This document shows positions 11,260-45,623 of a stretch of 45,623 nt of DNA, piece by piece. Within the stretch, counting starts at the first letter, position 1, and every line of letters starts with the position of its first letter. Source of the stretch: a virus (lineage: Duplodnaviria; Heunggongvirae; Uroviricota; Caudoviricetes); IMG/VR virus record IMGVR_UViG_2537561936_000015; one strand, written 5' to 3'. The notes under the pieces are model-generated. The model had not been told where the DNA came from, did not search any database, and worked only from the letters and a program-made list of their open reading frames with translations. The position numbers and the translations under genes were made by a program.

Positions 11260-11592
11260 ATGAATCCTTATATTTATCTTGGTGGTGCAATACTTGCAGA
11301 GGTCATTGGTACAACCTTAATGAAGTTTTCAGAAGGTTTTACACGGTTATGGCCATCTGTTGGTACAATTATTTGTTATTGTGCATCATTCTGGTTATTA
11401 GCTCAGACGCTGGCTTATATTCCTACAGGGATTGCTTATGCTATCTGGTCAGGAGTCGGTATTGTCCTGATTAGCTTACTATCATGGGGATTTTTCGGCC
11501 AACGGTTGGACCTGCCAGCCATTATAGGCATGATGTTGATTTGTGCCGGTGTGTTGGTTATTAATTTATTGTCACGAAGCACACCACATTAA
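11260..11592 (+). CDS. emrE: Small multidrug resistance (SMR) efflux transporter EmrE
   Basis: 110-aa MNPYIYLGGAILAEVIGTTLMKFSEGFTRLWPSVGTIICYCASFWLLAQTLAYIP.. recognised as E. coli EmrE (DLP12 cargo gene). Confidence 0.9.
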   Translation: MNPYIYLGGAILAEVIGTTLMKFSEGFTRLWPSVGTIICYCASFWLLAQTLAYIPTGIAYAIWSGVGIVLISLLSWGFFGQRLDLPAIIGMMLICAGVLVINLLSRSTPH

Positions 11593-11847: not shown

Positions 11848-13374
11848 ATGAAAAAAGCCATAGCATATATGCGATTTTCATCACCAGGTCAGATGTCTGG
11901 TGATTCATTAAACCGCCAGAGAAGGCTTATTACTGAATGGCTAAAGGTAAATAGTGATTATTACCTTGATACCGTAACGTATGAAGATTTGGGGTTAAGC
12001 GCATTCAATGGAAAGCATGCACAATCAGGAGCTTTTTCGGAATTTTTAGATGCTATAGAACATGGTTATATATTGCCAGGGACTACATTGTTAGTTGAAA
12101 GTCTGGACAGACTTTCAAGAGAAAAAGTCGGTGAAGCGATTGAGCGTCTGAAATTGATTTTGAATCACGGTATTGATGTTATAACTCTTTGCGATAATAC
12201 AGTCTATAATATTGACTCATTGAATGAGCCATATTCATTAATAAAAGCCATACTTATAGCACAAAGGGCAAATGAAGAAAGCGAGATAAAGTCAAGTCGG
12301 GTTAAATTATCATGGAAGAAAAAACGGCAGGATGCACTGGAGTCAGGCACGATTATGACGGCGTCTTGTCCGAGATGGCTCTCATTGGATGACAAAAGAA
12401 CGGCTTTTGTTCCAGACCCCGACAGGGTGAAAACTATTGAGCTAATTTTTAAACTCAGGATGGAAAGGCGCTCATTGAATGCAATAGCCAAGTATTTAAA
12501 TGATCATGCTGTAAAGAATTTCTCAGGAAAAGAAAGTGCATGGGGACCTTCTGTAATTGAAAAATTATTAGCGAATAAAGCTCTGATAGGTATATGCGTA
12601 CCTTCATATCGTGCAAGAGGTAAAGGAATAAGTGAAATCGCTGGCTATTATCCCAGAGTCATATCAGATGATTTGTTTTACGCTGTGCAGGAAATTCGGT
12701 TGGCACCTTTTGGTATTAGCAATAGTAGCAAAAATCCTATGTTGATAAATCTACTTCGAACAGTTATGAAGTGCGAGGCTTGTGGTAATACCATGATTGT
12801 TCATGCGGTATCTGGAAGTTTGCATGGCTATTATGTTTGTCCGATGAGAAGACTGCATCGATGTGACAGGCCATCAATAAAGAGAGATTTGGTTGATTAT
12901 AATATCATTAATGAGTTGCTTTTTAATTGTAGTAAAATCCAACCAGTTGAAAACAAGAAAGATGCTAATGAAACTTTAGAGTTGAAAATTATTGAGCTCC
13001 AGATGAAAATTAATAATTTAATTGCTGCATTATCTGTTGCGCCTGAAGTTACCGCTATAGCAGAAAAAATCAGAGTATTAGATAAGGAATTACGAAGGGC
13101 TTCTGTATCATTAAAAACTTTGAAGAGTAAAGCGGTGAGTTCACTTGGTGATTTTCATGCTATTGACTTAACCAGTAAAAATGGGCGAGAGCTATGTCGT
13201 ACACTTGCCTATAAAACATTCGAAAAAATCATAATCAATACAGATAATAAAACCTGTGATATCTATTTTATGAATGGCATTGTTTTTAAACACTATCCTT
13301 TAATGAAAACAATATCTGCCCAGCAGGCGATAAGTACTCTCAAATATATGGTTGATGGTGAGGTTTATTTTTGA
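11848..13374 (+). CDS. ybcK: Large serine recombinase (DLP12 YbcK-like)
   Basis: 508-aa ORF, N-terminal resolvase-type catalytic region (AYMRFSSPGQ); AT-rich; same position as ybcK in DLP12. Confidence 0.85.
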   Translation: MKKAIAYMRFSSPGQMSGDSLNRQRRLITEWLKVNSDYYLDTVTYEDLGLSAFNGKHAQSGAFSEFLDAIEHGYILPGTTLLVESLDRLSREKVGEAIERLKLILNHGIDVITLCDNTVYNIDSLNEPYSLIKAILIAQRANEESEIKSSRVKLSWKKKRQDALESGTIMTASCPRWLSLDDKRTAFVPDPDRVKTIELIFKLRMERRSLNAIAKYLNDHAVKNFSGKESAWGPSVIEKLLANKALIGICVPSYRARGKGISEIAGYYPRVISDDLFYAVQEIRLAPFGISNSSKNPMLINLLRTVMKCEACGNTMIVHAVSGSLHGYYVCPMRRLHRCDRPSIKRDLVDYNIINELLFNCSKIQPVENKKDANETLELKIIELQMKINNLIAALSVAPEVTAIAEKIRVLDKELRRASVSLKTLKSKAVSSLGDFHAIDLTSKNGRELCRTLAYKTFEKIIINTDNKTCDIYFMNGIVFKHYPLMKTISAQQAISTLKYMVDGEVYF

Positions 13375-17020: not shown

Positions 17021-18103
17021 TTAGAACTGGTAAACCATACCTACAGCAACGATATCATCGGTAGCAACGCCAGATGCTTTCGTGAAATCGCTCTTATCAA
17101 TCAGGTTGATTTTGTAATCAACAAAAGTGGACATATTTTTGTTGAAGTAATAGGTTGCACCTACATCAATATATTCAACCAGGTCCTGATCACCCCACGC
17201 ACCCAAGTCTTTTCCTTTAGATTGCAGGTAAGCAACGGACGGACGCAGACCGAAGTCGAACTGATATTGTGCAACTACTTCGAAGTTTTGTGCTTTGTTG
17301 GCAATATGGTTATTACCAAAAACAGTCATGTTCTGGGTTTCAGAATAGGTGGTAGCCAGATAGATGTTGTTCGCATCATATTTCAGACCAGCTGCCCATA
17401 CTTCAGCATTTTGACCAGATGCATTCAGGCTGTTGTTACCGTAGATAACCTGATTATTAGTGCGGTCAGATTTAGCATAGGTTGCACCTACACCGAATCC
17501 TTCATACTCATAAGTAGTGGAGAAACCGAAACCATCACCATTAGCTTCAGTTACGTCAGTGCGGTCATTTTTACCCTGATACTGAGCAGCAAAGTTCAGA
17601 CCATCAACCAGACCAAAGAAGTCATTGTTACGATAAGTTGCAACACCTGTGGTGCGACCAGTCATGAATACATCTGTTTGGGTCCAGGTATCGCCACCGA
17701 ATTCTGGCAGAACGTCGGTCCATGCACCAATATCGTATGCTACACCGTAGTTACGGCCATAATCGATGGAGCCGTAGTCACCGAATTTCAGGCCAGCGAA
17801 GGCAAGACGGGTTTTGTCTTTGGAGGAACCTTGAGATTCAGCGCGGTTGCCTTTGAATTCATATTCCCACTGACCGAAACCAGTCAGTTGATCGTTGATT
17901 TGGGTTTCACCTTTGAAGCCAAGACGGGCATAAGTAGTATCACCATCATCTGCATCATTAGAGGAGAAGTAGTGCTTAGCATTAACTTTCCCGTACAGAT
18001 CCAGCTTGTTACTGTCTTTATTATAAATTTCAGCTGCCTGAGCAGACATCGCCATCAGTACTGATGCAGCTACAGCAGAAATTGCCACTGTTAATTTTTT
18101 CAT
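17021..18103 (-). CDS. nmpC: Outer membrane porin (NmpC/OmpD, OmpC family), lysogenic-conversion gene, apparently intact
   Basis: 360-aa ORF with signal peptide [24 protein letters not shown]-terminal ..VAVGMVYQF typical of general porins; opposite strand between Q and lysis genes as in DLP12. Confidence 0.9.
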
Positions 18104-30949: not shown

Positions 30950-30964
30950 TCCGGAGAGTCAGCG

Positions 30965-31387
30965 ATGTTCCTGAAAACCGAATCATTTGAACATAACGGC
31001 GTGACCGTCACGCTTTCTGAACTGTCAGCCCTGCAGCGTATTGAGCATCTCGCCCTGATGAAACGGCAGGCAGAACAGGCGGAGTCAGACAGCAACCGGA
31101 AGTTTACTGTGGAAGACGCCATCAGAACCGGCGCGTTTCTGGTGGCGATGTCCCTGTGGCATAACCATCCGCAGAAGACGCAGATGCCGTCCATGAATGA
31201 AGCCGTTAAACAGATTGAGCAGGAAGTGCTTACCACCTGGCCTACAGAGGCAATTTCTCATGCTGAAAACGTGGTGTACCGGCTGTCTGGTATGTATGAG
31301 TTTGTGGTGAATAATGCCCCTGAACAGACAGAGGACGCCGGGCCCGCAGAGCCTGTTTCTGCGGGAAAGTGTTCGACGGTGAGCTGA
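30965..31387 (+). CDS. G: Tail assembly chaperone G
   Basis: 140-aa ORF recognised as lambda gpG. Confidence 0.95.
   Translation: MFLKTESFEHNGVTVTLSELSALQRIEHLALMKRQAEQAESDSNRKFTVEDAIRTGAFLVAMSLWHNHPQKTQMPSMNEAVKQIEQEVLTTWPTEAISHAENVVYRLSGMYEFVVNNAPEQTEDAGPAEPVSAGKCSTVS
31362..31368 (+). promoter_or_regulatory. Slippery heptamer GGGAAAG for programmed -1 frameshift producing G-T fusion
   Basis: G GGA AAG at the 3' end of G, with T ORF open in the -1 frame. Confidence 0.7.
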
Positions 31388-31803
31388 GTTTTGCCCTGAA
31401 ACTGGCGCGTGAGATGGGGCGACCCGACTGGCGTGCCATGCTTGCCGGGATGTCATCCACGGAGTATGCCGACTGGCACCGCTTTTACAGTACCCATTAT
31501 TTTCATGATGTTCTGCTGGATATGCACTTTTCCGGGCTGACGTACACCGTGCTCAGCCTGTTTTTCAGCGATCCGGATATGCATCCGCTGGATTTCAGTC
31601 TGCTGAACCGGCGTGAGGCTGACGAAGAGCCTGAAGATGATGTGCTGATGCAGAAAGCGGCAGGGCTTGCCGGAGGTGTCCGCTTTGGCCCGGACGGGAA
31701 TGAAGTTATCCCTACTTCCCCGGATGTGGCGGACATGACGGAGGATGACGTAATGCTGATGACAGTATCAGAAGGGATCGCAGGAGGAGTCCGGTATGGC
31801 TGA
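31369..31803 (+). CDS. T: Tail assembly protein T (expressed as G-T fusion by -1 frameshift)
   Basis: 144-aa open frame overlapping G 3' end; recognised as lambda gpT region. Confidence 0.85.
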   Translation: MFDGELSFALKLAREMGRPDWRAMLAGMSSTEYADWHRFYSTHYFHDVLLDMHFSGLTYTVLSLFFSDPDMHPLDFSLLNRREADEEPEDDVLMQKAAGLAGGVRFGPDGNEVIPTSPDVADMTEDDVMLMTVSEGIAGGVRYG

Positions 31804-34375
31804 ACCGGTAGGCGATCTGGTCGTTGATTTGAGTCTGGATGCGGCCAGATTTGACGAGCAGATGACCAGAGTCAGGCGTCATTTTTCCGGTACGGAAAGT
31901 GATGCGAAAAAAACAGCGGCAGTCGTTGAACAGTCGCTGAGCCGACAGGCGCTGGCTGCACAGAAAGCGGGGATTTCCGTCGGGCAGTATAAAGCCGCCA
32001 TGCGTATGCTGCCTGCACAGTTCACCGACGTGGCCACGCAGCTTGCAGGCGGGCAAAGTCCGTGGCTGATCCTGCTGCAACAGGGTGGTCAGGTTAAGGA
32101 CTCCTTCGGCGGGATGATCCCCATGTTCCGGGGGCTTGCCGGTGCGATCACCCTGCCGATGGTGGGGGCCACCTCGCTGGCGGTGGCGACCGGTGCGCTG
32201 GCGTATGCCTGGTATCAGGGCAACTCAACCCTGTCCGATTTCAACAAAACGCTGGTCCTTTCCGGCAATCAGGCGGGACTGACGGCAGATCGTATGCTGG
32301 TCCTGTCCAGAGCCGGGCAGGCGGCAGGGCTGACGTTTAACCAGACCAGCGAGTCACTGACGGCGCTGGTGAATGCCGGTGTGCGTGGTGGTGAGCAGTT
32401 TGAGGCGATCAGCCAGAGTGTGGCGCGTTTCTCCTCTGCATCCGGCGTGGAGGTGGACAAGGTCGCTGAAGCCTTCGGGAAGCTGACCACAGACCCGACG
32501 TCGGGACTGACAGCGATGGCACGTCAGTTCCATAACGTGACGGCGGAGCAGATTGCGTATGTTGCTCAGTTGCAGCGTTCCGGAGATGAAGCCGGGGCAT
32601 TGCAGGCGGCGAACGAGGCCGCAACGAAAGGGTTTGATGACCAGACCCGCCGCCTGAAAGAGAACATGGGCACGCTGGAGACCTGGGCAGACAGGACAGC
32701 ACGGGCATTCAAATCCATGTGGGATTCGGTGCTGGATATTGGTCGCCCGGACACTGCCCAGGGAATGCTGGAGAAAGCAGAAAAGGCTTTTGATGAGGCG
32801 GACAAAAAATGGCAGTGGTATCAGAGCCGGAGCCACCGGCGCGGTAAAACCTCAGCATTTCTTGCCAATCTCCGGGGAGCATGGGAGGACAGAGCGAATG
32901 CGCAACTTGGGCTTTCAGCCGCCACGTTGCAGGCCGATCTTGAAAAGGCCAGAGAGATGGCAGCAAAGGACTGGGCCGAGTCTGAGGCATCACGGCTGAA
33001 ATATACCGAAGAGGCGCAGAAGGCTTACGAACGGCTGCAGACGCCGCTGGAGAAATATACCGCCCGTCAGGAAGAACTGAACAAGGCACTGAAAGACGGG
33101 AAAATCCTGCAGGCGGATTACAACACGCTGATGGCGGCGGCGAAAAAGGATTATGAAGCGACGCTGAAAAAGCCGAAACAGTCCGGCGTGAAGGTGTCTG
33201 CGGGCGATCGTCAGGAAGACAGTGCTCATGCTGCCCTGCTGATGCTTCAGACAGAACTCCGGACGCTGGAGAAGCATGCCGGAGCGAATGAGAAAATCAG
33301 CCAGCAGCGCCGGGATTTGTGGAAGGCAGAAAGTCAGTTCGCGGTACTGGAGGAGGCGGCGCAACGTCGTCAGTTGTCTGCACAGGAGAAATCCCTGCTG
33401 GCGCATAAAGATGAGACGCTGGAGTACAAACGCCAGCTGGCTGCACTTGGCGACAAGGTTACGTATCAGGAGCGCCTGAACGCGCTGGCGCAGCAGGCGG
33501 ATAAATTCGCACAGCAGCAACGGGCAAAACGGGCCGCCATTGATGCGAAAAGCCGGGGGCTGACTGACCGGCAGGCAGAACGGGAAGCCACGGAACAGCG
33601 CCTGAAGGAACAGTATGGCGATAATCCGCTGGCGCTGAATAACGTCATGTCAGAGCAGAAAAAGACCTGGGCGGCTGAAGACCAGCTTCGCGGGAGCTGG
33701 ATGGCAGGCCTGAAGTCCGGCTGGAGTGAGTGGGAAGAGAGCGCCACGGACAGTATGTCGCAGGTTAAAAGTGCAGCCACGCAGACCTTTGATGGTATTG
33801 CACAGAATATGGCGGCGATGCTGACCGGCAGTGAGCAGAACTGGCGCAGCTTCACCCGTTCCGTGCTGTCCATGATGACAGAAATTCTGCTTAAGCAGGC
33901 AATGGTGGGGATTGTCGGGAGTATCGGCAGCGCCATTGGCGGTGCTGCCAGTGGTGGAGCATCCGCGTCAGGCGGTACAGCCATTCAGGCCGCTGCGGCG
34001 AAATTCCATTTTGCGACCGGGGGATTTACGGGAACCGGCGGCAAATATGAGCCAGCGGGGATTGTTCACCGTGGTGAATTTGTCTTCACGAAGGAGGCAA
34101 CCAGCCGGATTGGTGTCGGCAACCTGTACCGCCTGATGCGGGGCTATGCGGAAGGTGGTTATGTGGGCGGTGCCGGAAGTCCGGCGCAGATGCGGCGGGC
34201 TGAAGGCATTAATTTTAATCAGAACAATCACGTGGTGATTCAGAACGACGGTACGAATGGTCTGCCAGGTCCACAGATGATGAAGGCAGTGTATGACATG
34301 GCCCGCAAGGGTGCCCGTGATGAAATTCAGACACAGATGCGTGATGGTGGCCTGTTCTCCGGAGGTGGACGATGA
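31796..34375 (+). CDS. H: Tail tape-measure protein H
   Basis: 859-aa ORF MAEPVGDLVVDLSLDAARFDEQM.. recognised as lambda gpH with a divergent central segment. Confidence 0.95.
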   Translation: MAEPVGDLVVDLSLDAARFDEQMTRVRRHFSGTESDAKKTAAVVEQSLSRQALAAQKAGISVGQYKAAMRMLPAQFTDVATQLAGGQSPWLILLQQGGQVKDSFGGMIPMFRGLAGAITLPMVGATSLAVATGALAYAWYQGNSTLSDFNKTLVLSGNQAGLTADRMLVLSRAGQAAGLTFNQTSESLTALVNAGVRGGEQFEAISQSVARFSSASGVEVDKVAEAFGKLTTDPTSGLTAMARQFHNVTAEQIAYVAQLQRSGDEAGALQAANEAATKGFDDQTRRLKENMGTLETWADRTARAFKSMWDSVLDIGRPDTAQGMLEKAEKAFDEADKKWQWYQSRSHRRGKTSAFLANLRGAWEDRANAQLGLSAATLQADLEKAREMAAKDWAESEASRLKYTEEAQKAYERLQTPLEKYTARQEELNKALKDGKILQADYNTLMAAAKKDYEATLKKPKQSGVKVSAGDRQEDSAHAALLMLQTELRTLEKHAGANEKISQQRRDLWKAESQFAVLEEAAQRRQLSAQEKSLLAHKDETLEYKRQLAALGDKVTYQERLNALAQQADKFAQQQRAKRAAIDAKSRGLTDRQAEREATEQRLKEQYGDNPLALNNVMSEQKKTWAAEDQLRGSWMAGLKSGWSEWEESATDSMSQVKSAATQTFDGIAQNMAAMLTGSEQNWRSFTRSVLSMMTEILLKQAMVGIVGSIGSAIGGAASGGASASGGTAIQAAAAKFHFATGGFTGTGGKYEPAGIVHRGEFVFTKEATSRIGVGNLYRLMRGYAEGGYVGGAGSPAQMRRAEGINFNQNNHVVIQNDGTNGLPGPQMMKAVYDMARKGARDEIQTQMRDGGLFSGGGR

Positions 34376-34701
34376 AAACCTTCCGCTGGAAAGTGAAACC
34401 CGGTATGGATGTGGCTTCGGCCCCTTCTGTAAGAAAGGTGCGCTTTGGTGATGGCTATTCCCAGCGAGCGCCTGCCGGGCTGAATGCCAACCTGAAAACG
34501 TACAGCGTGACGCTTTCTGTCCCCCGTGAGGAGGCCACGGTACTGGAGTCGTTTCTGGCTGAGCACGGGGGCTGGAAATCCTTTCTGTGGACGCCGCCTT
34601 ATGAGTGGCGGCAGATAAAGGTGACCTGCGCAAAATGGTCGTCGCGGGTCAGTATGTTGCGTGTTGAGTTCAGCGCAGAGTTTGAACAGGTGGTGAACTG
34701 A
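34372..34701 (+). CDS. M: Tail tip protein M
   Basis: 109-aa ORF recognised as lambda gpM. Confidence 0.95.
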   Translation: MKTFRWKVKPGMDVASAPSVRKVRFGDGYSQRAPAGLNANLKTYSVTLSVPREEATVLESFLAEHGGWKSFLWTPPYEWRQIKVTCAKWSSRVSMLRVEFSAEFEQVVN

Positions 34702-35399
34702 TGCAGGATATCCGACAGGAAACACTGAATGAATGCACCCGTGCGGAGCAGTCGGCCAGCGTGGTGCTCTGGGAAATCGACCTGACAGAGGTCGGTGGAG
34801 AACGTTATTTTTTCTGTAATGAGCAGAACGAAAAAGGTGAGCCGGTCACCTGGCAGGGGCGACAGTATCAGCCGTATCCCATTCAGGGGAGTGGTTTTGA
34901 ACTGAATGGCAAAGGCACCAGTACGCGCCCCACGCTGACGGTTTCTAACCTGTACGGTATGGTCACTGGGATGGCGGAAGATATGCAGAGTCTGGTCGGC
35001 GGAACGGTGGTCCGGCGTAAGGTTTACGCCCGTTTTCTGGATGCGGTGAACTTCGTCAACGGAAACAGTTACGCCGATCCGGAGCAGGAGGTGATCAGCC
35101 GCTGGCGCATTGAGCAGTGCAGCGAACTGAGCGCGGTGAGTGCCTCCTTTGTACTGTCCACGCCGACGGAAACGGATGGCGCTGTTTTTCCGGGACGTAT
35201 CATGCTGGCCAACACCTGCACCTGGACCTATCGCGGCGATGAGTGCGGTTATCACGGTCCGGCTGTCGCGGATGAATATGACCAGCCAACGTCCGATATC
35301 ACGAAGGATAAATGCAGCAAATGCCTGAGCGGTTGTAAGTTCCGCAATAACGTCGGCAACTTTGGCGGCTTCCTTTCCATTAACAAACTTTCGCAGTAA
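34701..35399 (+). CDS. L: Tail tip protein L
   Basis: 232-aa ORF recognised as lambda gpL (Cys cluster near C-terminus). Confidence 0.95.
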   Translation: MQDIRQETLNECTRAEQSASVVLWEIDLTEVGGERYFFCNEQNEKGEPVTWQGRQYQPYPIQGSGFELNGKGTSTRPTLTVSNLYGMVTGMAEDMQSLVGGTVVRRKVYARFLDAVNFVNGNSYADPEQEVISRWRIEQCSELSAVSASFVLSTPTETDGAVFPGRIMLANTCTWTYRGDECGYHGPAVADEYDQPTSDITKDKCSKCLSGCKFRNNVGNFGGFLSINKLSQ

Positions 35400-35404
35400 A
35401 TCCC

Positions 35405-36148
35405 ATGACACAGACAGAATCAGCGATTCTGGCGCACGCCCGGCGATGTGCGCCAGCGGAGTCGTGCGGCTTCGTGGTAAGCACGCCGGAGGGGGAAAGA
35501 TATTTTCCCTGCGTGAATATTTCCGGTGAGCCGGAGGCGTATTTCCGTATGTCGCCGGAAGACTGGCTGCAGGCAGAAATGCAGGGTGAGATTGTGGCGC
35601 TGGTCCACAGCCACCCCGGTGGTCTGCCCTGGCTGAGTGAGGCCGACCGGCGGCTGCAGGTGCAGAGTGATTTGCCGTGGTGGCTGGTCTGCCGGGGGAC
35701 GATTCATAAGTTCCGCTGTGTGCCGCATCTCACCGGGCGGCGCTTTGAGCACGGTGTGACGGACTGTTACACACTGTTCCGGGATGCTTATCATCTTGCA
35801 GGTATCGATTTGCCGGATTTTTACCGACATGATGACTGGTGGAAATCAGGTCAGAATCTCTATCTGGATAATCTGGAGGCCACAGGGCTGTATCAGGTGC
35901 CGTTGTCATCAGCACAACCGGGCGATGTGCTGCTGTGCTGCTTTGGTTCATCGGTGCCGAATCATGCCGCCATTTACTGTGGTGACGGCGAGCTGCTGCA
36001 CCATATTCCTGAACAACTGAGCAAACGAGAGAGGTATACCGACAAATGGCAGCGACGCACACACTCCCTCTGGCGTCACCAGGCATGGCACGTATCTGCC
36101 TTTACGGGGATTTACAACGATTTGGCCGCCGCATCGATCTGCGTGTGA
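35405..36148 (+). CDS. K: Tail tip assembly protein K (JAB/MPN + NlpC/P60 domains)
   Basis: 247-aa ORF with JAMM motif (ALVHSHPGG..SEAD) and NlpC/P60 Cys/His (DCYTLF, NHAAIY). Confidence 0.85.
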   Translation: MTQTESAILAHARRCAPAESCGFVVSTPEGERYFPCVNISGEPEAYFRMSPEDWLQAEMQGEIVALVHSHPGGLPWLSEADRRLQVQSDLPWWLVCRGTIHKFRCVPHLTGRRFEHGVTDCYTLFRDAYHLAGIDLPDFYRHDDWWKSGQNLYLDNLEATGLYQVPLSSAQPGDVLLCCFGSSVPNHAAIYCGDGELLHHIPEQLSKRERYTDKWQRRTHSLWRHQAWHVSAFTGIYNDLAAASICV

Positions 36149-36685
36149 AAACGGGGGCCGAAGCCATCCGGGCGCTGGCCATGCAGATCCCGGCGTTTCG
36201 TCAGAAGCTGAGCGACGGCTGGTATCAGGTACGCATTGCCGGGCGTGATACAGGTGAAACGGAATTATCAGCCCGTTTCATGAACTCTGGCTGATGGTGC
36301 TGTGATCCATATCGTGCCGCGTCTGGCAGGAGCCAAAAGTGGCGGTGTGTTTCAGGCTGTGCTGGGGGCGGCTGTTATGGCGGTTGCTATATGGATGCCG
36401 GGGGTAGGAATTATGGCGAGTAATCTGCTGTTTTCTCTCGGTGCCAGTATGACGCTTGGCGGTGTTGCACAGATGCTGGCCCCTAAACCCAAAACCCCCC
36501 GCACACAGACAACGGATAACGGCAAACAGAACACCTATTTTTCTTCACTGGATAACATGGTTGCCCAGGGCAATGTTCTGCCTGTTCTGTACGGTGAAAT
36601 GCGCGTGGGGTCACGCGTGGTTTCTCAGGAGATCAGCACGGCAGACGAAGGGGATGGTGGTCAGGTTGTGGTGATTGGTCGCTGA
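36046..36685 (+). pseudogene. I: Tail tip assembly protein I, split into two reading frames (36046-36294 and 36302-36685)
   Basis: N-terminal part (MAATHTLPLASPGMARICLYGDLQRFGRRIDLRVKTG..) ends at TGA 36292-36294; C-terminal part (..AVIHIVPRLAGAKSGG..QVVVIGR) is in the +1 frame; span is 640 nt, not a multiple of 3. Confidence 0.6.
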
Positions 36686-36745
36686 TGCAAAATGTTTTAT
36701 GTGAAACCGCCTGCGGGCGGTTTTGTCATTTATGGAGCGTGAGGA

Positions 36746-39700
36746 ATGGGTAAAGGCAGCAGTAAGGGGCATACCCCGCGCGAAGCGAAGGACAACCTGA
36801 AGTCCACGCAGCTGCTGAGTGTGATCGATGCCATCAGCGAAGGGCCGGTTGAAGGTCCGGTGGATGGATTAAAAAGCGTGCTGCTGAACAGTACGCCGGT
36901 GCTGGACACTGAGGGGAATACCAACATCTCCGGTGTCACGGTGGTGTTCCGTGCCGGTGAGCAGGAGCAGACACCGCCGGAGGGGTTTGAATCCTCCGGC
37001 TCCGAGACGGTGCTGGGTACGGAAGTGAAATATGACACGCCGATCACCCGCACCATTACGTCTGCAAACATCGACCGTCTGCGCTTTACCTTCGGTGTGC
37101 AGGCACTGGTGGAAACCACCTCAAAGGGGGACCGGAATCCGTCGGAAGTCCGCCTGCTGGTTCAGATACAGCGTAACGGTGGCTGGGTGACGGAAAAAGA
37201 CATCACCATTAAGGGCAAAACCACCTCGCAGTATCTGGCCTCGGTGGTGGTGGATAACCTGCCGCCGCGCCCGTTTAATATCCGGATGCGCAGGATGACG
37301 CCGGACAGCACCACAGACCAGCTGCAGAACAAAACGCTCTGGTCGTCATACACCGAAATCATCGATGTGAAACAGTGCTACCCGAACACGGCACTGGTCG
37401 GCGTGCAGGTGGACTCGGAACAGTTCGGCAGCCAGCAGGTGAGCCGTAATTATCATCTTCGCGGGCGTATTCTGCAGGTGCCGTCGAACTATAACCCGCA
37501 GACGCGGCAATACAGCGGTATCTGGGACGGAACGTTTAAGCCAGCATACAGCAACAACATGGCCTGGTGTATGTGGGATATGCTGACCCATCCGCGCTAC
37601 GGCATGGGGAAGCGTCTCGGTGCAGCGGATGTAGATAAATGGGCGCTGTATGTCATCGGCCAGAATTGCGACCAGTCGGTGCCGGATGGCTTTGGTGGCA
37701 CGGAGCCGCGCATCACCTGTAATGCCTGGCTGACCACACAGCGCAAGGCGTGGGATGTTCTCAGTGATTTCTGCTCGGCGATGCGCTGTATGCCGGTATG
37801 GAACGGGCAGACGCTGACGTTCGTGCAGGACCGACCGTCGGATAAGGTGTGGACCTATAACCGCAGTAATGTGGTGATGCCGGATGATGGCGCGCCGTTC
37901 CGCTACAGCTTCAGTGCCCTGAAGGACCGTCATAATGCCGTTGAGGTGAACTGGATTGACCCGGATAACGGCTGGGAGACGGCGACAGAGCTTGTTGAAG
38001 ATACGCAGGCCATTGCCCGTTACGGTCGTAACGTCACGAAGATGGATGCCTTTGGCTGTACCAGCCGGGGGCAGGCGCACCGCGCCGGGCTGTGGCTGAT
38101 TAAAACGGAACTACTGGAAACGCAGACCGTGGACTTCAGCGTGGGTGCGGAAGGGCTTCTCCATGTGCCGGGCGATGTCATTGAAATCTGCGATGATGAC
38201 TATGCGGGGATCAGCACCGGCGGGCGCGTGCTGGCGGTGAACAGCCAGACCCGGACGCTGACGCTCGACCGTGAAATCACGCTGCCATCCTCCGGTACCA
38301 CGCTGATAAGCCTGGTTGACGGAAGTGGCAATCCGGTCAGCGTGGAGGTCCAGTCCGTCACCGACGGCGTGAAGGTAAAAGTGAGCCGTGTTCCTGACGG
38401 CGTTGCCGGATACAGCGTATGGGGGCTGAAGCTGCCGACGCTGCGCCAGCGCCTGTTCCGCTGCGTGAGTATCCGTGAGAACGACGACGGCACGTATGCC
38501 ATCACCGCCGTGCAGCATGTACCGGAAAAAGAAGCCATCGTGGATAACGGGGCGCACTTTGACGGCGACCAGAGCGGCACGGTGAATGGTGTCACGCCGC
38601 CAGCAGTGCAGCACCTGACTGCCGAAGTCACCGCAGACAGCGGGGAGTATCAGGTACTGGCCCGCTGGGACACGCCGAAGGTGGTGAAGGGCGTGAGTTT
38701 CCTGCTCCGTCTGACCGTGACAGCGGATGACGGCAGTGAGCGGCTGGTCAGCACAGCCAGGACGACGGAAACCACATACCGCTTCACGCAACTGGCGCTG
38801 GGAAATTACAGGCTGACAGTCCGGGCGGTAAATGCGTGGGGACAGCAGGGCGATCCGGCATCGGTATCGTTCCGGATTGCCGCACCGGCAGCACCGTCGC
38901 GGATTGAGCTGACGCCGGGCTATTTTCAGATAACCGCCACGCCGCATCTTGCGGTTTATGATCCGACGGTACAGTTTGAGTTCTGGTTCTCGGAAAAGCG
39001 GATTGCGGATATCAGGCAGGTTGAAACCACAGCACGCTATCTTGGCACGGCGCTGTACTGGATAGCCGCCAGTATCAATATCAGGCCGGGCCATAATTAT
39101 TATTTTTACGTTCGCAGTGTGAACACCGTTGGCAAATCGGCATTCGTGGAGGCTGTTGGTCAGCCGAGTGATGACGCATCCGGCTATCTGGATTTTTTCA
39201 AAGGCGAGATAGGGAAAACCCATCTGGCTCAGGAGCTGTGGACGCAGATTGATAACGGTCAGCTTGCGCCTGACCTGGCTGAAATCAGGACATCCATTAC
39301 GGATGTCAGCAATGAAATCACACAGACCGTCAATAAGAAACTGGAAGACCAGAGTGCAGCGATCCAGCAGATACAGAAGGTTCAGGTTGATACAAATAAT
39401 AATCTGAACAGCATGTGGGCTGTGAAGCTGCAGCAGATGCAGGACGGACGCCTTTATATCGCGGGTATCGGTGCCGGTATTGAGAACACCTCCGACGGCA
39501 TGCAGAGTCAGGTGCTGCTGGCGGCAGACAGGATTGCGATGATTAATCCTGCGAATGGCAACACAAAGCCGATGTTTGTTGGTCAGGGCGATCAGATATT
39601 CATGAACGAAGTGTTCCTGAAATATCTGACGGCTCCCACCATTACCAGCGGCGGTAATCCTCCGGCATTTTCCCTGACACCGGACGGAAAGCTGACCGCT

Positions 39701-40225
39701 AAAAATGCGGATATCAGTGGCAGTGTGAATGCGAACGCCGGGACGCTCAACAACGTCACGATTAACGAGAACTGCCGGGTTCTGGGAAAACTGTCCGCGA
39801 ACCAGATTGAAGGCGATCTCGTTAAAACAGTGGGCAAAGCTTTCCCCCGGGACTCCCGTGCACCGGAGCGGTGGCCATCAGGGACCATTACCGTCAGGGT
39901 TTATGACGATCAGCCGTTTGACCGGCAAATTGTTATTCCGGCGGTGGCATTCAGTGGCGCTAAGCATGAGAGAGAGCATACTGATATTTACTCCTCATGC
40001 CGTCTGATAGTGCGGAAAAACGGTGCTGAAATTTATAACCGTACCGCGCTGGATAATACGCTGATTTACAGTGGCGTTATTGATATGCCTGCCGGTCACG
40101 GTCACATGACGCTGGAGTTTTCGGTATCAGCATGGCTGGTGAATAACTGGTATCCCACAGCAAGTATCAGCGATTTGCTGGTTGTGGTGATGAAGAAAGC
40201 CACCGCAGGCATCAGTATCAGCTGA
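36746..40225 (+). CDS. J: Tail tip / host-specificity protein J
   Basis: 1159-aa [48 protein letters not shown].. recognised as lambda gpJ family. Confidence 0.95.
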
Positions 40226-40243
40226 ATTTTATAACCCATATAC

Positions 40244-40269
40244 GGGCGCCAGAAATGGCGCCTTTTTTA
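40244..40269 (+). terminator. Rho-independent terminator after J (GGCGCC-agaaat-GGCGCC + T6)
   Basis: Perfect 6-bp stem with T-run. Confidence 0.55.
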
Positions 40270-40292
40270 TTGCAGAAAAGCGAGAGGTAATT

Positions 40293-40892
40293 ATGCGTAA
40301 ATTATGTGCTGTTATTCTGTCCGCAGCCATCTGTCTGTCCGTATCCGGTGCGCCTGCATGGGCGTCTGAACATCAGTCCACACTGAACGCGGGGTATCTT
40401 CATGCCCGTACGAACGCTCCCGGCAGCGATAATCTGAACGGGATTAACGTGAAATACCGTTATGAGTTTACGGACACGCTGGGGCTGGTGACGTCATTCA
40501 GTTATGCCAATGCCAAAGATGAGCAAAAAACGCATTACAGCGATACCCGCTGGCATGAAGATTCCGTGCGTAACCGCTGGTTCAGCGTGATGGCGGGGCC
40601 GTCTGTACGCGTGAATGAATGGTTCAGCGCGTATGCGATGGCGGGTGTGGCTTACAGCCGTGTGTCGACTTTCTCCGGGGATTATCTCCGCGTAACTGAC
40701 AACAAGGGGAAAACGCACGACGTGCTGACCGGAAGTGATGACGGTCGCCACAGCAATACCTCTCTGGCGTGGGGAGCTGGCGTGCAGTTTAACCCGACCG
40801 AATCCGTGGCCGTTGATGTCGCTTATGAAGGCTCCGGCAGCGGTGACTGGCGTACCAACAGTTTCATCGTGGGTGTCGGCTATAAATTCTGA
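40293..40892 (+). CDS. lom: Outer membrane protein Lom (Ail/Lom family)
   Basis: 199-aa ORF with signal peptide, C-terminal ..GVGYKF beta-barrel signature; position after J as in lambda. Confidence 0.9.
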   Translation: MRKLCAVILSAAICLSVSGAPAWASEHQSTLNAGYLHARTNAPGSDNLNGINVKYRYEFTDTLGLVTSFSYANAKDEQKTHYSDTRWHEDSVRNRWFSVMAGPSVRVNEWFSAYAMAGVAYSRVSTFSGDYLRVTDNKGKTHDVLTGSDDGRHSNTSLAWGAGVQFNPTESVAVDVAYEGSGSGDWRTNSFIVGVGYKF

Positions 40893-40918
40893 TTAGCCAG
40901 GTAACACAGTGTTATGAC

Positions 40919-40946
40919 AGCCCGCCGGTTCAGGCGGGCTTTTTTG
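40919..40946 (+). terminator. Rho-independent terminator after lom (AGCCCGCC-ggttca-GGCGGGCT + T5)
   Basis: Perfect 8-bp stem with T-run. Confidence 0.55.
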
Positions 40947-40957
40947 TGGGGGGGAAT

Positions 40958-43870
40958 ATGGCAGTACTGATTTCAGGTGTACTGAAAGACGGTGCAGGTA
41001 AGCCGATACAAAACTGCACCATTCAGCTAAAGGCCAGGCGCAACAGCACCACGGTGGTGGTGAACACAGTGGCCTCAGAAAATCCGGATGAAGCCGGGCG
41101 TTATACAATGGACGTCGAGTATGGTCAGTACAGCGTCAGTCTGTTGGTGGAGGGGTTCCCGCCGTCACACGCCGGGATTATCACCGTATATGAGGACTCA
41201 AAGCCTGGCACACTGAATGATTTCCTCGGTGCAATGACGGAGGATGATGCCCGTCCGGAGGCACTGCGCCGTTTTGAGCTGATGGTGGAAGAGGTGGCGC
41301 GTAACGCCTCCGCGGTGGCACAGAACACGGCAGCCGCGAAGAAGTCAGCCAGCGATGCCAGCACATCAGCCCGTGAGGCGGCAACCCGTGCGACTGATGC
41401 TGCAGGCTCAGCACGTGCCGCCAGCACGTCAGCCGGACAGGCCGCGTCGTCGGCTCAGTCAGCGTCTTCCAGCGCAGGAACGGCATCGACAAAGGCCAGT
41501 GAAGCAGCGAAAAGTGCTGCTGCTGCAGAGTCATCAAAAAGCGCGGCAGCCACCAGTGCCGGTGCGGCGAAAACGTCAGAAACGAATGCTGCAGCGTCAC
41601 AAAAATCTGCAGCCGCTTCTGCATCCACCGCGACCATGAAGGCGTCAGAAGCTGCCACCTCGGCACGGGATGCGGCTGCCTCAAAAGAGGCAGCAAAATC
41701 ATCAGAAACGAATGCATCATCAAGTGCCAGTAGTGCAGCTTCCTCGGCAACGGCGGCAGGCAATTCCGCGAAGACGGCAAAGACGGCTGAGACAAACGCT
41801 AAGTCTTCTGAAACGGCAGCAGCACAGAGTGCCTCCGCAGCAGCGGGCTCAAAAACAGCGGCTGCATCGTCGGCCAGTGCCGCGTCAACAAGTGCCGGGC
41901 AGGCCTCAGCCAGTGCCACCGCCGCCGGAAAATCGGCAGAAAGCGCCGCATCATCCGCTTCAACAGCCACAACGAAGGCTGGCGAAGCCACTGAGCAAGC
42001 CACTGCAGCAGCGAGGTCTGCTTCTGCAGCAAAAACCTCTGAAACAAATGCAAAGACTTCAGCAGACAATGCTGCTTCCTCTAAGGCGGCAGCCGCATCG
42101 TCCGCTGGTTCAGCGGCGTCATCGGCATCATCTGCGTCTGCTTCAAAAGATGAGGCGACCAGACAAGCGTCAGCAGCGAAAGGTAGTGCCACGACAGCAA
42201 CAACGAAAGCATCAGAGGCGGCAGGCAGTGCGACGGCTGCATCTCAGAGCAAAGTTGCTGCTGAATCCGCGGCAACGCGTGCCGAAACAGCGGCAAAACG
42301 GGCAGAGGATATTGCTGATGCCGTATCTCTGGAAGATGCGAGCACGACGAAAAAAGGTGTGGTTCAGCTCAGCAGCGCGACCAACAGCACTTCCGAGTCA
42401 CTGGCGGCAACACCAAAGGCAGTAAAGGCAGCATATGATCTTGCTAACGCAAAATATACCGCTCAGGACGCCACGACGGCACGAAAAGGGGTAGTTCAGC
42501 TCAGTAGCGCCACTAACAGCCCGTCTGAAACGCTGGCTGCGACACCAAAAGCGGTTAAGGCGGTAATGGATGAAACGAACAAGAAAGCGCCTTTAAACAG
42601 TCCTGCGCTGACCGGAACGCCAACAACGCCAACTGCGCCAAAAGGGACTAATAATACTCAGATCGCAAGCACGGCTTATGTGATGGCCGCGATTGCCGCA
42701 CTTGTAGACTCGTCGCCTGACGCACTGAATACGCTGAACGAGCTGGCGGCGGCGCTGGGAAACGACCCGAATTTTGCGACCACCATGACTAACGCGCTTG
42801 CGGGTAAGCAACCGAAAGATGCCACCCTGACGGCGCTGGCCGGGCTTGCTACTGCGGCAGACAGGTTTCCGTATTTTACGGGGAATGATGTCGCCAGCCT
42901 GGCAACCCTGACAAAAGTCGGGCGGGATATTCTTGCGAAATCGACCGTTGCCGCTGTTATCGAATACCTCGGTTTACAGGAAACGGTAAACAAGGCTGGT
43001 AACGCCGTTCAGCGTTCCGGTGATAAAATGACCGGAGAACTGAAAATTGGCACGGTGAATGCGCTGCGAATTTTCAATGATGCCTTCGGTCTTATTTTCC
43101 GTCGTTCAGAAGATTTTCTTCATTTCATTCCGACGGCTGAAGGACAAGGCGAAAACGGTGATATCGGCCCATTAAGGCCATTCGCTATAAATCTGAGAAC
43201 AGGTGCTATATCTGTCAGCCACGGGGCCAAAATTGAAGGAGGTCTAGCTATTGGAGCTACTGATAACGCACTGGGTGAAAACTCCATTGTTCTGGGAGAT
43301 AACGACACCGGATTTAGGCAAGATGGAGATGGTTTTATTAGCTTCTTTTCAAATGGTTCGCGCATAGGACATATTGATGAGTTAGGATTACATATTTATA
43401 AAGATATTGAATCTAATGGCAGCAATTTTAGATTAAAAGGTAATTACCGCCACCACATTACATTCGCCAACGAAGACGGAAGTATTCGTATGTTTTTGTG
43501 GAAAGATAAAGATGGTGATGGTGTTCATATTAATAATGGTTCAAGCGGTGGCGGTGATTTCGTTTTTAAAACAGATGGGGGATTTGCGCTGGGAAGTGGT
43601 GCGCAAGTTGCGTCTAATGGCGATATTTATGGTTCAGTGTGGGAAAACAACTGGTTAAGCGCATGGCTGCATAATCATGTCGTTCGGGATATTCGTCTTG
43701 GCAGCATTGAATATAAAAACGTATGGCGCGACTCCGGCTTTGGCGATGCGTCAGGTTATGTTTTAACAGCCGCAATTAACAGCAATGCGGATGATATTGT
43801 CGACACTGTTGCCAGAAGGCCAATTCAGAAATTGATTGGGGGAATATGGTATAACGTGGGGAGTGTTTAA
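40958..43870 (+). CDS. stf: Side tail fibre protein Stf with Ala/Ser-rich repeat shaft and exchangeable C-terminal tip
   Basis: 970-aa from [49 protein letters not shown].. recognised as lambda Stf N-terminus; C-terminal ~300 aa AT-rich and non-lambda. Confidence 0.9.
42957..42982. promoter_or_regulatory. Gin/Pin/Cin-type DNA invertase crossover site (gix-like) inside stf
   Basis: TTATCGAATACCTCGGTTTACAGGAA; reverse complement matches Mu gix (TTCCTGTAAACCGAGGTTTTGGATAA, from memory) at 23 of 26 positions; encodes ..IEYLGLQE.. Confidence 0.6.
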
Positions 43871-43871
43871 G

Positions 43872-44399
43872 ATGATGCACCTGAAAAATATTAAGGCCGG
43901 GAATCCGAAAACAAAAGAGCAATACCAGCTAACTAAAAAAGCGGGCGTGGTATGGCTCTTTTGCGAAGATGGCAAAAACTGGTATGAGGAACAAAAGAAT
44001 TTTCAGCCAGACACCATAAAAATTGCTTACGATGAGAACAACATCATCGTTGCTGTCAGTAAAGACGTTTCAACTATTAATCCTGAAGGGCTAAGCATAG
44101 TTGAAGTTCCTGATATTACGGCAAATCGTCGCGCAGACAATAACGGAAAATGGATGTTTCTGGATGGTAAAGTAGTAAAGAGGGAATATACAGAACAGGA
44201 ACTGCAACAACAGGCCGAATCACAAAAGGCCGCATTGCTTTCCGAAGCTGAATCAGTCATCCAGCCGCTGGAACGCGCTGTCAGGCTGAATATGGCAACA
44301 GACGAGGAACGCACACGACTGGAAGCATGGGAACGCTACAGTGTTCTGGTCAGCCGTGTGGATACGGCAAATCCTGAATGGCCACAAAAGCCTGAATAA
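43872..44399 (+). CDS. tfa: Tail fibre assembly protein Tfa
   Basis: 175-aa [48 protein letters not shown].. Confidence 0.85.
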
Positions 44400-44405
44400 A
44401 AATTA

Positions 44406-44422
44406 AGGCCCGATAGCGGGCC
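44406..44422. terminator. Hairpin AGGCCCG-atag-CGGGCCT between convergent tfa genes (putative bidirectional terminator)
   Basis: 7-bp perfect stem between stop codons at 44399 and 44428. Confidence 0.4.
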
Positions 44423-44427
44423 TCGTC

Positions 44428-44961
44428 TCATTCAGGTTGTTCGGGAAATGTTACTGGCAGGCTGGAGGTGTCTGTAGATTCGACTTTCTGCGCATAGAGC
44501 ATCCACTCGGTTAATTTTTGTTTATTCTCGTCGGAAATGATGCCCAGCCGTAGCTGTGAGTCCCATAGCTGGGTTTTATCCCTGACAAGTTGCAACAGGC
44601 TTTGCTTTTCATTCTCTGCCTGCTGCCTCTGTTCCTCTTCGGTATAAGTTCGCTTTATCACTACGCCATCTTTGAACATCCATTTACCCGAAATATCAGC
44701 CCGGCGATTTGCTGTAATATCAGGTAATTCAACGACGCTTGCGCCTTCCGGATTAATTGCTGAAACATCCTTTTCAATACAAATAATAACGCCGTTATGG
44801 TCATAGGCCATTTTCAATGTGTCTGGCCGGAAATTCTTTTGTTCCTCATACCAGTTTTTTCCATTGTCTGAATAAAGCCATTTGATGTTAAATTGCTTTG
44901 TTAGCTGGTATTGCTCTTTTGTTTTAGGATTGCCAGCAGTAATGTTTTTTAAGTGCATCAT
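44428..44961 (-). CDS. Alternative tail fibre assembly protein Tfa' (inverted orientation)
   Basis: 177-aa [48 protein letters not shown].., paralogous to tfa at 43872-44399 on the opposite strand. Confidence 0.8.
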   Translation of the reverse strand: MMHLKNITAGNPKTKEQYQLTKQFNIKWLYSDNGKNWYEEQKNFRPDTLKMAYDHNGVIICIEKDVSAINPEGASVVELPDITANRRADISGKWMFKDGVVIKRTYTEEEQRQQAENEKQSLLQLVRDKTQLWDSQLRLGIISDENKQKLTEWMLYAQKVESTDTSSLPVTFPEQPE

Positions 44962-44963
44962 AA

Positions 44964-45623
44964 TTAAATACTCCCTGCGTTATACCACGTTCCATTAATG
45001 CAATACTGAATTGGCCTTGCCTGAGTTGTATCAATTAATTCATCACGGTTTCCGTTAACTGAACCCGTAACGACATAACCTGACCTGTCAGACCAGCCGG
45101 GACCATTCCATGTCTGAACAGATGACAGACCGCCCAGACGAATACCTGTAATAAACTTTGAGTTACATTCCGCTTTGGTATATGCACCAACATCCCCCGC
45201 AGAGGGTTTGTAGGTTGTGGTGTAAAACGCTGACCAGTTATCTTCAAAGCCATAACCATCACGCGCTGAACGATAAAGGATACCGCCGTTCCTGTAATTC
45301 ACACGGAACTGTACGGCAGGGCAACTCCCCGTATTCATATTGAAGTGGAGTATTAATGCTGTTGCGCCTTTGATATCTGCATCATAAACACCGCTATTCC
45401 AGTTCCAGCCAACAGCTTTATCATTTGCAACCCTGCTTCCTGTTTGCCCTAAAGCAAATGCAGGCTGCTGGTTTTTCGTGTTGTAGTCTCGTCGCCAGCC
45501 AGGAGCATAAGCATCACCATGATTAATATAGGTGAATTGAGCGTTAGTAATTCCGCCGCCGCTGGACGTACTCGCCGTAGTAACGCGTATGGTCATTGCG
45601 CCGCGAGTGCCAATAACTTCCAC
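44964..45623 (-). CDS. Alternative side tail fibre C-terminal domain (inverted orientation; 5' end beyond window)
   Basis: Open to window edge; C-terminus ..RDELIDTTQARPIQYCINGTWYNAGSI parallels stf C-terminus ..[26 protein letters not shown]. Confidence 0.75.
   Translation of the reverse strand: MEVIGTRGAMTIRVTTASTSSGGGITNAQFTYINHGDAYAPGWRRDYNTKNQQPAFALGQTGSRVANDKAVGWNWNSGVYDADIKGATALILHFNMNTGSCPAVQFRVNYRNGGILYRSARDGYGFEDNWSAFYTTTYKPSAGDVGAYTKAECNSKFITGIRLGGLSSVQTWNGPGWSDRSGYVVTGSVNGNRDELIDTTQARPIQYCINGTWYNAGSI

Follow-up and report, generated by a model that had tools for sequence, protein, structure and literature searches.

A Gin/Pin-type invertible side tail fibre segment with a truncated invertase gene, probably flipped by an enzyme supplied in trans

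Introduction

Is a side tail fibre gene that carries a gix-like site part of a working genetic switch, and if so, which enzyme turns it? The question is raised by the right end of a 45,623-nucleotide tailed-phage sequence (IMG/VR record IMGVR_UViG_2537561936_000015), the whole of which we call the window. Tail-fibre switches of the Mu, P1 and e14 type are textbook material. A first-pass annotation of the window, made from the sequence alone, placed the locus among them and expected the second crossover site and the invertase gene just beyond position 45623. The module itself has already been described: its sites, its truncated invertase and both orientations were reported for Phi4 of Escherichia coli EC958 in 2014, and inversion in trans was proposed for that segment (PMC4134206).

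Results

The window end was extended with the public contig L003 (GCA_000357145.2), which is 100% identical to window positions 30958-45623 (14.7 kb). The segment and its surroundings contain the following features, with positions beyond 45623 given as window equivalents.

40958-43870, + strand: stf (side tail fibre), in the present orientation an ORF of 970 aa in which the constant part is fused to tip A
42957-42982, + strand: stf-proximal gix-like crossover site TTATCGAATACCTCGGTTTACAGGAA, inside stf, with the core dinucleotide TC at 42969-42970; left arm of the inverted repeat
42971-43870, + strand: variable tip A, the roughly 296 residues of Stf past the site; the currently expressed copy
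43872-44399, + strand: tfaA, 175 aa, the tail fibre assembly chaperone that goes with tip A, Pfam Caudo_TAP (PF02413) at E = 8e-37
44405-44424 (L003 13448-13467), no strand: G+C-rich hairpin between the convergent tfa genes, terminator-like by consensus match only
44428-44961, - strand: tfaB, 177 aa, the chaperone belonging to the stored cassette, Caudo_TAP at E = 6e-37
44964-45623 and on to about 45921, - strand: variable tip B, the stored alternative C-terminus of Stf, cut by the window end
45909-45934 (L003 14952-14977), - strand: inverted partner site TTATCTAAAACCTCGGTTTACAGGAA, 286 bp beyond the window end

The 26-bp site inside stf was found on the + strand as annotated, and it was the sole match in the window at ≤3 mismatches (dinucleotide-shuffle expectation 0.00). 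It marks the border between two modules: database matches to the DNA on its 3' side mostly start exactly at 42957, and the G+C content drops from 0.59 just 5' of the site to 0.46, 0.38 and 0.45 going 3', which bears out the proposed junction between the fibre shaft and an AT-rich tip. The site had been said to match gix at 23 of 26 positions. Both annotated G boundaries of the Mu genome read TTATCCAAAACCTCGGTTTACAGGAA, with which the window site agrees at 24/26. Agreement with P1 cixR is 21/26, the other 5/26 positions being different.

The second crossover site lies where it had been expected, in the identical contig beyond the window. Both sites share the core TC, inverted to each other, and their inner halves are identical; the arms of the inverted repeat show near-identity over 41 bp and 80% identity over 56 nt. 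The invertible segment between the two sites measures 2,978 bp.

The mirrored gene arrangement, with one tfa gene on the + strand followed by a second tfa gene and a second tip on the opposite strand, was confirmed by ORFs, tblastn and Pfam. The order J (36746-40225), lom (40293-40892), stf and tfa is that of a lambda-type Stf/Tfa region. Stf contains a phage_tail_N domain (PF08400, residues 1-134) and Phage_fiber_2 repeats (PF03406), and an identical 970-aa protein is present in GCA_000357145.2. Tip A has a weak Pfam gp37_trimer match. A close relative of it was sought among deposited phages and none was found, the best being 46% identical, in Yersinia Mu-like phages. The stored cassette is Mu-like: tip B is 93.8% identical to the variable part of Mu S' over 322 aa and tfaB is 96% identical to Mu U', while tfaA is 83% identical to Mu U. 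The reading frame of tip B stays open as far as the second site, whose outer half contributes the TAA that closes it upstream. The locus thus holds in-frame alternative C-termini, each with its cognate assembly gene: a 970-aa Stf with tfaA, or a 989-aa Stf' with tfaB. Judged by its sequence, the hairpin between the tfa genes, about which the segment is mirrored, is likely a terminator.

The invertase gene did not turn up as anticipated. Extension of the window yielded the inverted 26-bp copy, but no Hin/Gin-family gene of about 190 aa. All that follows the second site is a 64-codon remnant of such a gene, in which some 233 nt of invertase sequence with an in-frame TGA are joined to the 3' fragment of a tfa gene. 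The remnant spans positions 2-73 of the 145 in the Pfam Resolvase model and is devoid of the helix-turn-helix domain; an intact adjacent serine invertase gene, with a catalytic domain and a C-terminal helix-turn-helix in about 185-195 aa, is absent. A tblastn search of the window, L003 and contig L001 with Gin and PinE returned nothing other than this remnant, and the window contains no Gin/Pin-like gene. The cassette's own invertase gene is dead. Since only a 64-codon remnant without the helix-turn-helix is left, there is no cis-encoded Gin/Pin enzyme to drive inversion, and the enzyme would therefore have to come from another element in the cell.

The segment is nevertheless found in both orientations. 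The tail region recurs in E. coli E66 at 99.8-99.9% identity, together with the same remnant, and there the segment is exactly inverted. J, lom and stf and the right flank are collinear with the window's contig, the cassette is inverted, and each flank keeps its outer half-site. The crossover can be placed within a 25-bp interval of identity that holds the core. When the window's contig was flipped in silico at the core, it gave a 989-aa Stf identical to the annotated E66 protein at 989/989 positions, and in E66 tip A is the silent copy, closed upstream. The same was seen in two ST131 strains, EC958 and JJ1886, whose flanks are 100% identical and whose cassettes are inverted; here the exchange falls within 12 bp (site positions 10-21). 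The junction between the remnant and the tfa fragment is common to E66, JJ1886 and EC958. Among complete genomes, tip B lies next to the remnant in at least 43 and a tip-A-like end in at least 144. The inverted sites, the Mu-like cassette and the two orientations in near-identical prophages show that the Gin/Pin-type invertible tail-fibre segment is real and belongs with Mu G, P1 C and e14 P, as the first-pass annotation had proposed.

Discussion

With a dead invertase, one may ask whether the cassette still moves. It could be a relic that was once invertible and, in this strain, has been locked in its present orientation since the invertase was lost, so that the differences among genomes are old. 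This would fit the 64-codon remnant and a window without any Gin/Pin-like gene. It would also fit the result from E66, whose chromosome was searched by megablast with a chimeric query made of an E66-specific anchor (the junction of stf and tip B) and the 3' halves of four invertase genes (gin, pinE, cin and one of P2 type). The anchor alone was matched, so at the similarity that megablast covers there is no Gin/Pin/Cin gene on that chromosome; an e14-like element at icd was scanned for in E66 and not found. However, one and the same complex remnant junction accompanies both orientations, in prophages whose tail regions are only 0.1-0.2% diverged and in ST131 strains whose flanks are 100% identical; the flips therefore post-date the truncation of the invertase. 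In addition, PacBio reads of a single EC958 culture were assembled into separate contigs for the two orientations of the Phi4 region (PMC4134206). We therefore regard a frozen segment as unlikely. An apparent flip might also arise in assembly. The window's source contig itself resembles a join of two prophages, the putative ybhC...potB join falling in the region 35000-37300, which makes errors in a repeated region plausible. Yet the orientation differences are seen in the finished chromosomes of E66, EC958 and JJ1886, the breakpoints lie exactly at the 26-bp sites, half-sites are exchanged reciprocally and both forms yield intact in-frame genes, so that an artefact is hardly credible.

If the inversion is real, it might still proceed by a route other than a Gin-type enzyme. 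In E. coli, RecA-dependent recombination needs a minimum of homology close to 25 bp. Such recombination between the two short repeats in inverted orientation, with no site-specific invertase, would draw on the 41 bp of near-identity and the 56 nt at 80% in the arms, and on the 25-bp exchange interval between the window and E66. In the ST131 pair, however, the crossover falls in an interval of only 12 bp with the core dinucleotide at its centre, too short for homologous recombination. The sites also agree at 24/26 with a known invertase target, and the alternative orientation of EC958 Phi4 was assembled separately from the same culture, while the mixture of about 50% described for that strain concerns the Phi1 segment and not Phi4 (PMC4134206). 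We consider this route very improbable. The window does encode one intact serine recombinase, a YbcK-like protein of 508 aa (11848-13374) with a complete Resolvase catalytic domain. This protein has the architecture of a large serine recombinase (Recombinase domain and zinc ribbon) without the Gin-type helix-turn-helix, and it was not detected by tblastn with Gin or PinE at E ≤ 1. Large serine recombinases use att sites of their own and need neither Fis nor an enhancer. Moreover, the YbcK-like gene sits in a part of the window that comes from a different prophage, one without an invertible segment, and blastn shows no relationship between the early regions of the window and of the E66 prophage. 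That it flips the cassette is scarcely conceivable. RecA-dependent recombination, assembly artefact and the YbcK-like recombinase were thus rejected as causes of the orientation difference.

The explanation that we favour, and hold to be very probable as a whole, is a two-state cassette with a dead invertase that is flipped by an enzyme supplied in trans. A serine invertase of the Gin/Pin/Cin family, made by another prophage or a phage-plasmid in the same cell, would recombine the sites at the central TC and catalyse the flip. In the state of the window, the constant Stf shaft would be followed by tip A and tfaA (970 aa); in the flipped state, it would be followed by the Mu S'-like tip B and tfaB (989 aa). 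Such a flip would probably alter the receptor specificity of the side tail fibres, and with it the host range. There is a precedent for the trans route, since the e14 P segment is inverted by PinQ of Qin (PMC12529663).

The remnant retains the 5' stretch in which homologous systems have their Fis-dependent recombinational enhancer with its two Fis sites. The Cin enhancer is annotated in P1 at cin nt 19-90. Over the equivalent positions the remnant is identical to Mu gin at 71/72 nt, and over the first 180 nt at 175/180. Its distance from the crossover, some 85-156 bp, is comparable to that in the Hin system, for which roughly 100 bp has been reported. By its retained sequence, the 5' stretch of the remnant may work as an enhancer; the JJ1886 remnant has extra substitutions within it. 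We put forward more tentatively, as possible but doubtful, that the stub is kept for the cis-acting enhancer and that the cassette is an orphan switch, flipped only by the invertases of co-resident prophages or phage-plasmids. If this were true, the host range of this lambdoid phage would depend on which other mobile elements share its cell. A still more far-reaching possibility, by analogy with the report on PinQ/StfE2 (PMC12529663), is that inversion in a lysogen yields a fibre protein that blocks the adsorption of other phages.

Some consequences are practical. Annotation routinely turns the silent tip and the invertase stub into partial or hypothetical genes, and a change of orientation can pass for an assembly error or a difference between strains. 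The fibre specificity of this prophage is probably not fixed by the orientation seen in an assembly. Reliance on a foreign invertase would also be a small example of cross-talk between mobile elements.

Comparison with known systems

The closest described counterpart is EC958 Phi4 of E. coli ST131 (Forde et al. 2014, PMC4134206). It has the identical stf-side 26-bp site, the same junction of truncated invertase and tfa fragment followed by the same methyltransferase gene, and a lambdoid stf context, and it is there that both orientations were observed and inversion in trans was proposed. The two elements differ in location, Phi4 being integrated at ompW/trpA and the window's element lying next to potB. 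The Phi4 cassette is 3,106 bp long as against 2,978 bp here, one tip is not the same, its invertase-side site GGTTTACGAGAA differs by 2 bases in the inner half, and its remnant has additional point mutations.

The Mu G segment resembles the window's in its gix sites (24/26), its S'/U' cassette (94-96% identical) and U (83%). The spacing from site to invertase start is 67 bp in both, and gin and the remnant agree at 97% over the first 180 nt. Mu differs in having an intact 193-aa Gin and Mu S as the constant part, where the window has a lambda-type Stf. There is no relationship between tip A and Mu Sv except in the first 28 residues past the site and in a weakly similar C-terminal stretch of about 65 residues (~40% identical).

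P1 C/Cin and e14 P/PinE share the mirrored layout, in which inverted crossover sites enclose two tips and two tfa-type genes beside a serine invertase gene, and in P1 the enhancer is within the 5' end of that gene. Both of these invertases are intact, and cin differs in being transcribed towards the segment. The window site had no match in K-12 e14 at ≤7 mismatches.

In a P2-like prophage of E. coli E300082 (NZ_CM128602.1), the whole cassette and 558 bp of the upstream constant part are about 95% identical to those of the window's element, and both sites are identical. The constant part of its fibre is otherwise of the P2 H type, and the second site is followed by an intact invertase of 196 aa.

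Crossover sites and cassette boundaries

The side-tail-fibre gene stf carries a gix-like site of 26 bp, TTATCGAATACCTCGGTTTACAGGAA, and is followed by two chaperone genes and a second fibre tip. The first-pass annotation had described this site, its stf context and the genes and tip downstream, and all are present where it placed them. The features of the region are:

36746-40225, J, upstream of lom and stf
40293-40892, lom, between J and stf
40958-43870 (+), stf, 970-aa ORF containing the stf-side site, with a Pfam prophage tail fibre N-terminal domain and fibre repeats
42957-42982, stf-side site
42983-43870 (+), tip A, the C-terminal end of Stf
43872-44399 (+), tfaA
44405-44424, hairpin between tfaA and tfaB
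44428-44961 (-), tfaB
44964 to the window end (-), second fibre tip (tip B)

The site is matched once in the window at up to three mismatches, with 0 matches expected from shuffles. In the Mu genome, TTATCCAAAACCTCGGTTTACAGGAA is centred on each annotated G-segment boundary. Against these Mu sites the window site agrees at 24 of 26 positions, against 23 in the first-pass annotation, while P1 cixR differs from it at five. When complete E. coli genomes were searched, matches to the downstream DNA mostly began at query position 358 (window 42957), and the G+C content at the site falls from 0.59 through 0.46 to 0.38. The stf-side site is therefore a genuine module boundary. The Ala/Ser/Thr-rich, repetitive shaft of stf (41125-42425) also holds several long overlapping ORFs of 100-251 aa, in frames different from that of stf or antisense to it; these extra ORFs on both strands are most likely compositional artefacts and not genes.

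The second site and the invertase remnant

The exact 970-aa Stf protein was found in one public contig, APYJ01000143.1 (GCA_000357145.2; L003), which is 100% identical to window 30958-45623 (L003 position = window position - 30957). A second, inverted site and an invertase gene had been expected beyond 45623. The site, TTATCTAAAACCTCGGTTTACAGGAA, lies at L003 14952-14977 (-), equivalent to window 45909-45934 and 286 bp past the window end, giving a cassette of 2,978 bp with both sites counted. The inner halves of the two sites are identical and the core is TC in both; the mismatches are at outer positions 6 and 9.

The expected invertase gene once existed, and what is left of it is a 64-codon remnant fused to a tfa end. 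Its frame starts 67 bp past the second crossover, 175 of its first 180 nt are identical to Mu gin, and it stops at a TGA after codon 64, followed by a short scrambled stretch, about 30 nt of pinE-like sequence and the 3' end of a tfa gene. In Pfam the remnant covers only positions 2-73 of the 145 of the Resolvase model and has no DNA-binding domain. Judged from its sequence, the invertase gene adjoining the cassette is dead, and a search for a Gin/Pin-like gene elsewhere in the window found none. The prophage nin region holds an intact YbcK-like large serine recombinase of 508 aa (11848-13374, +; Resolvase, Recombinase and zinc ribbon), with no relation to Gin/Pin at the tblastn level.

After the remnant::tfa junction, L003 continues with a methyltransferase gene and then potB, potA and pepT. 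The methyltransferase gene (class I, SAM-dependent) lies on the reverse strand within L003 15239-16364 (window-equivalent 46196-47321, past the window), with a 76-bp direct repeat of a tfa 3' end on either side of it (L003 15264-15339 and 16289-16364). The arrangement resembles a cargo cassette that entered via recombination between tfa ends. The same repeat-bracketed unit is 3' of the invertase stub in E. coli strains E66, EC958 and JJ1886.

Inversion of the cassette in related genomes

The finished chromosome of E66 shares the tail region (window 37268-42997 at 99.88% identity) and has the same remnant as L003. Its cassette is 99.8% identical and, with respect to both flanks, points the other way. 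Between E66 and the window element the outer half-sites remain with the flanks and the inner sequences are exchanged, within an interval of 25 bp that includes the core. When L003 is flipped at the core in silico, the resulting Stf has 989 aa and agrees with the annotated E66 protein at 989 of 989 residues; for the displaced tip, a TAA in the outer half-site closes the upstream frame.

The remnant junction is adjoined by tip B in at least 43 complete E. coli genomes and by a tip-A-like end in at least 144. The ST131 strains EC958 and JJ1886 share the remnant::tfa junction; their flanks are 100% identical and the 3.1-kb cassette is inverted between them. The exchange in this pair is confined to 12 bp around the core (site positions 10-21), an interval too short for homologous recombination, which we rejected as the cause of this inversion. 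The flips are more recent than the truncation of the invertase.

Relatives of the tips and chaperones

Tip B is closest to the variable part of Mu S' (322 aa; 93.8% identity), TfaB to Mu U' (96%) and TfaA to Mu U (83%). Tip A is the expressed receptor-binding end in the window orientation. No close relative of it was found among deposited phage genomes, the best match being Yersinia Mu-like phages at 46% identity; it is present in several E. coli prophages, both lambdoid and P2-like. One of these, a P2-like prophage of E. coli E300082, carries the whole cassette with tip A and sites identical to those of the window element, but differs in having an intact 196-aa invertase.

Prophage mosaic and cargo

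The window joins two lambdoid prophages, with the switch at about 35000-37300. The part from 1 to about 35000 matches, at about 100% identity, a prophage that sits at ybhC|ybhB in strain GPEC60-12-649; this prophage ends with stfR-tfa and is without the cassette. From about 37300 onward the window is about 100% identical to the E66 potC|potB prophage. At one end of the source draft contig is ybhC and at the other potB-potA-pepT-phoQP, each flank being oriented as in K-12, and a ybhC-to-potB join would mean about 380 kb lost in a K-12-like chromosome. The join is either a genuine rearrangement between prophages or a chimera of the assembly, formed via repeated tail genes; the cassette finding is unaffected. 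Genes for an SMR efflux pump, EmrE (11260-11592, +), and an OmpC-type porin (17021-18103, -), both annotated from the identical region of a finished genome, are prophage cargo.

Proposed mechanism and supply of the invertase

In Mu, P1 and e14, invertase dimers bind the sites, which synapse at a Fis-bound enhancer and exchange strands at a 2-bp core. By homology, a serine invertase dimer would occupy each site of the present cassette, the sites would synapse at a Fis-bound enhancer and strand exchange would occur at the 2-bp core. The Mu enhancer was reportedly located within gin by Kahmann et al. in 1985. The P1 annotation places the enhancer at cin nt 19-90, and over the equivalent nucleotides the remnant is identical to Mu gin at 71 of 72 positions. 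The distance from the crossover to this putative enhancer would be about 85-156 bp, comparable with the figure of about 100 bp reported for the Hin system. The remnant may persist for the enhancer it carries, which is the only mildly new suggestion made here.

Since the invertase in cis is dead, yet the flips post-date its truncation, any enzyme that flips the cassette must be supplied in trans. On the E66 chromosome, a megablast-level search for the 3' halves of gin, cin, pinE and a P2-type invertase gene found no close match, and e14 was not found at icd. Two published cases support supply in trans. Prophage Phi4 of EC958 has a truncated invertase, inversion in trans was proposed for it, and PacBio reads of a single culture assembled into contigs of alternative orientation (PMC4134206); PinQ of Qin inverts the e14 P segment (PMC12529663).

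An intact invertase next to the cassette is the one structural feature of Gin/Pin-type invertible tail-fibre segments that the locus lacks. A cassette of this type with a dead invertase is already known, and functionally the window locus equals the orphan, trans-dependent variant described for ST131 Phi4 of EC958.
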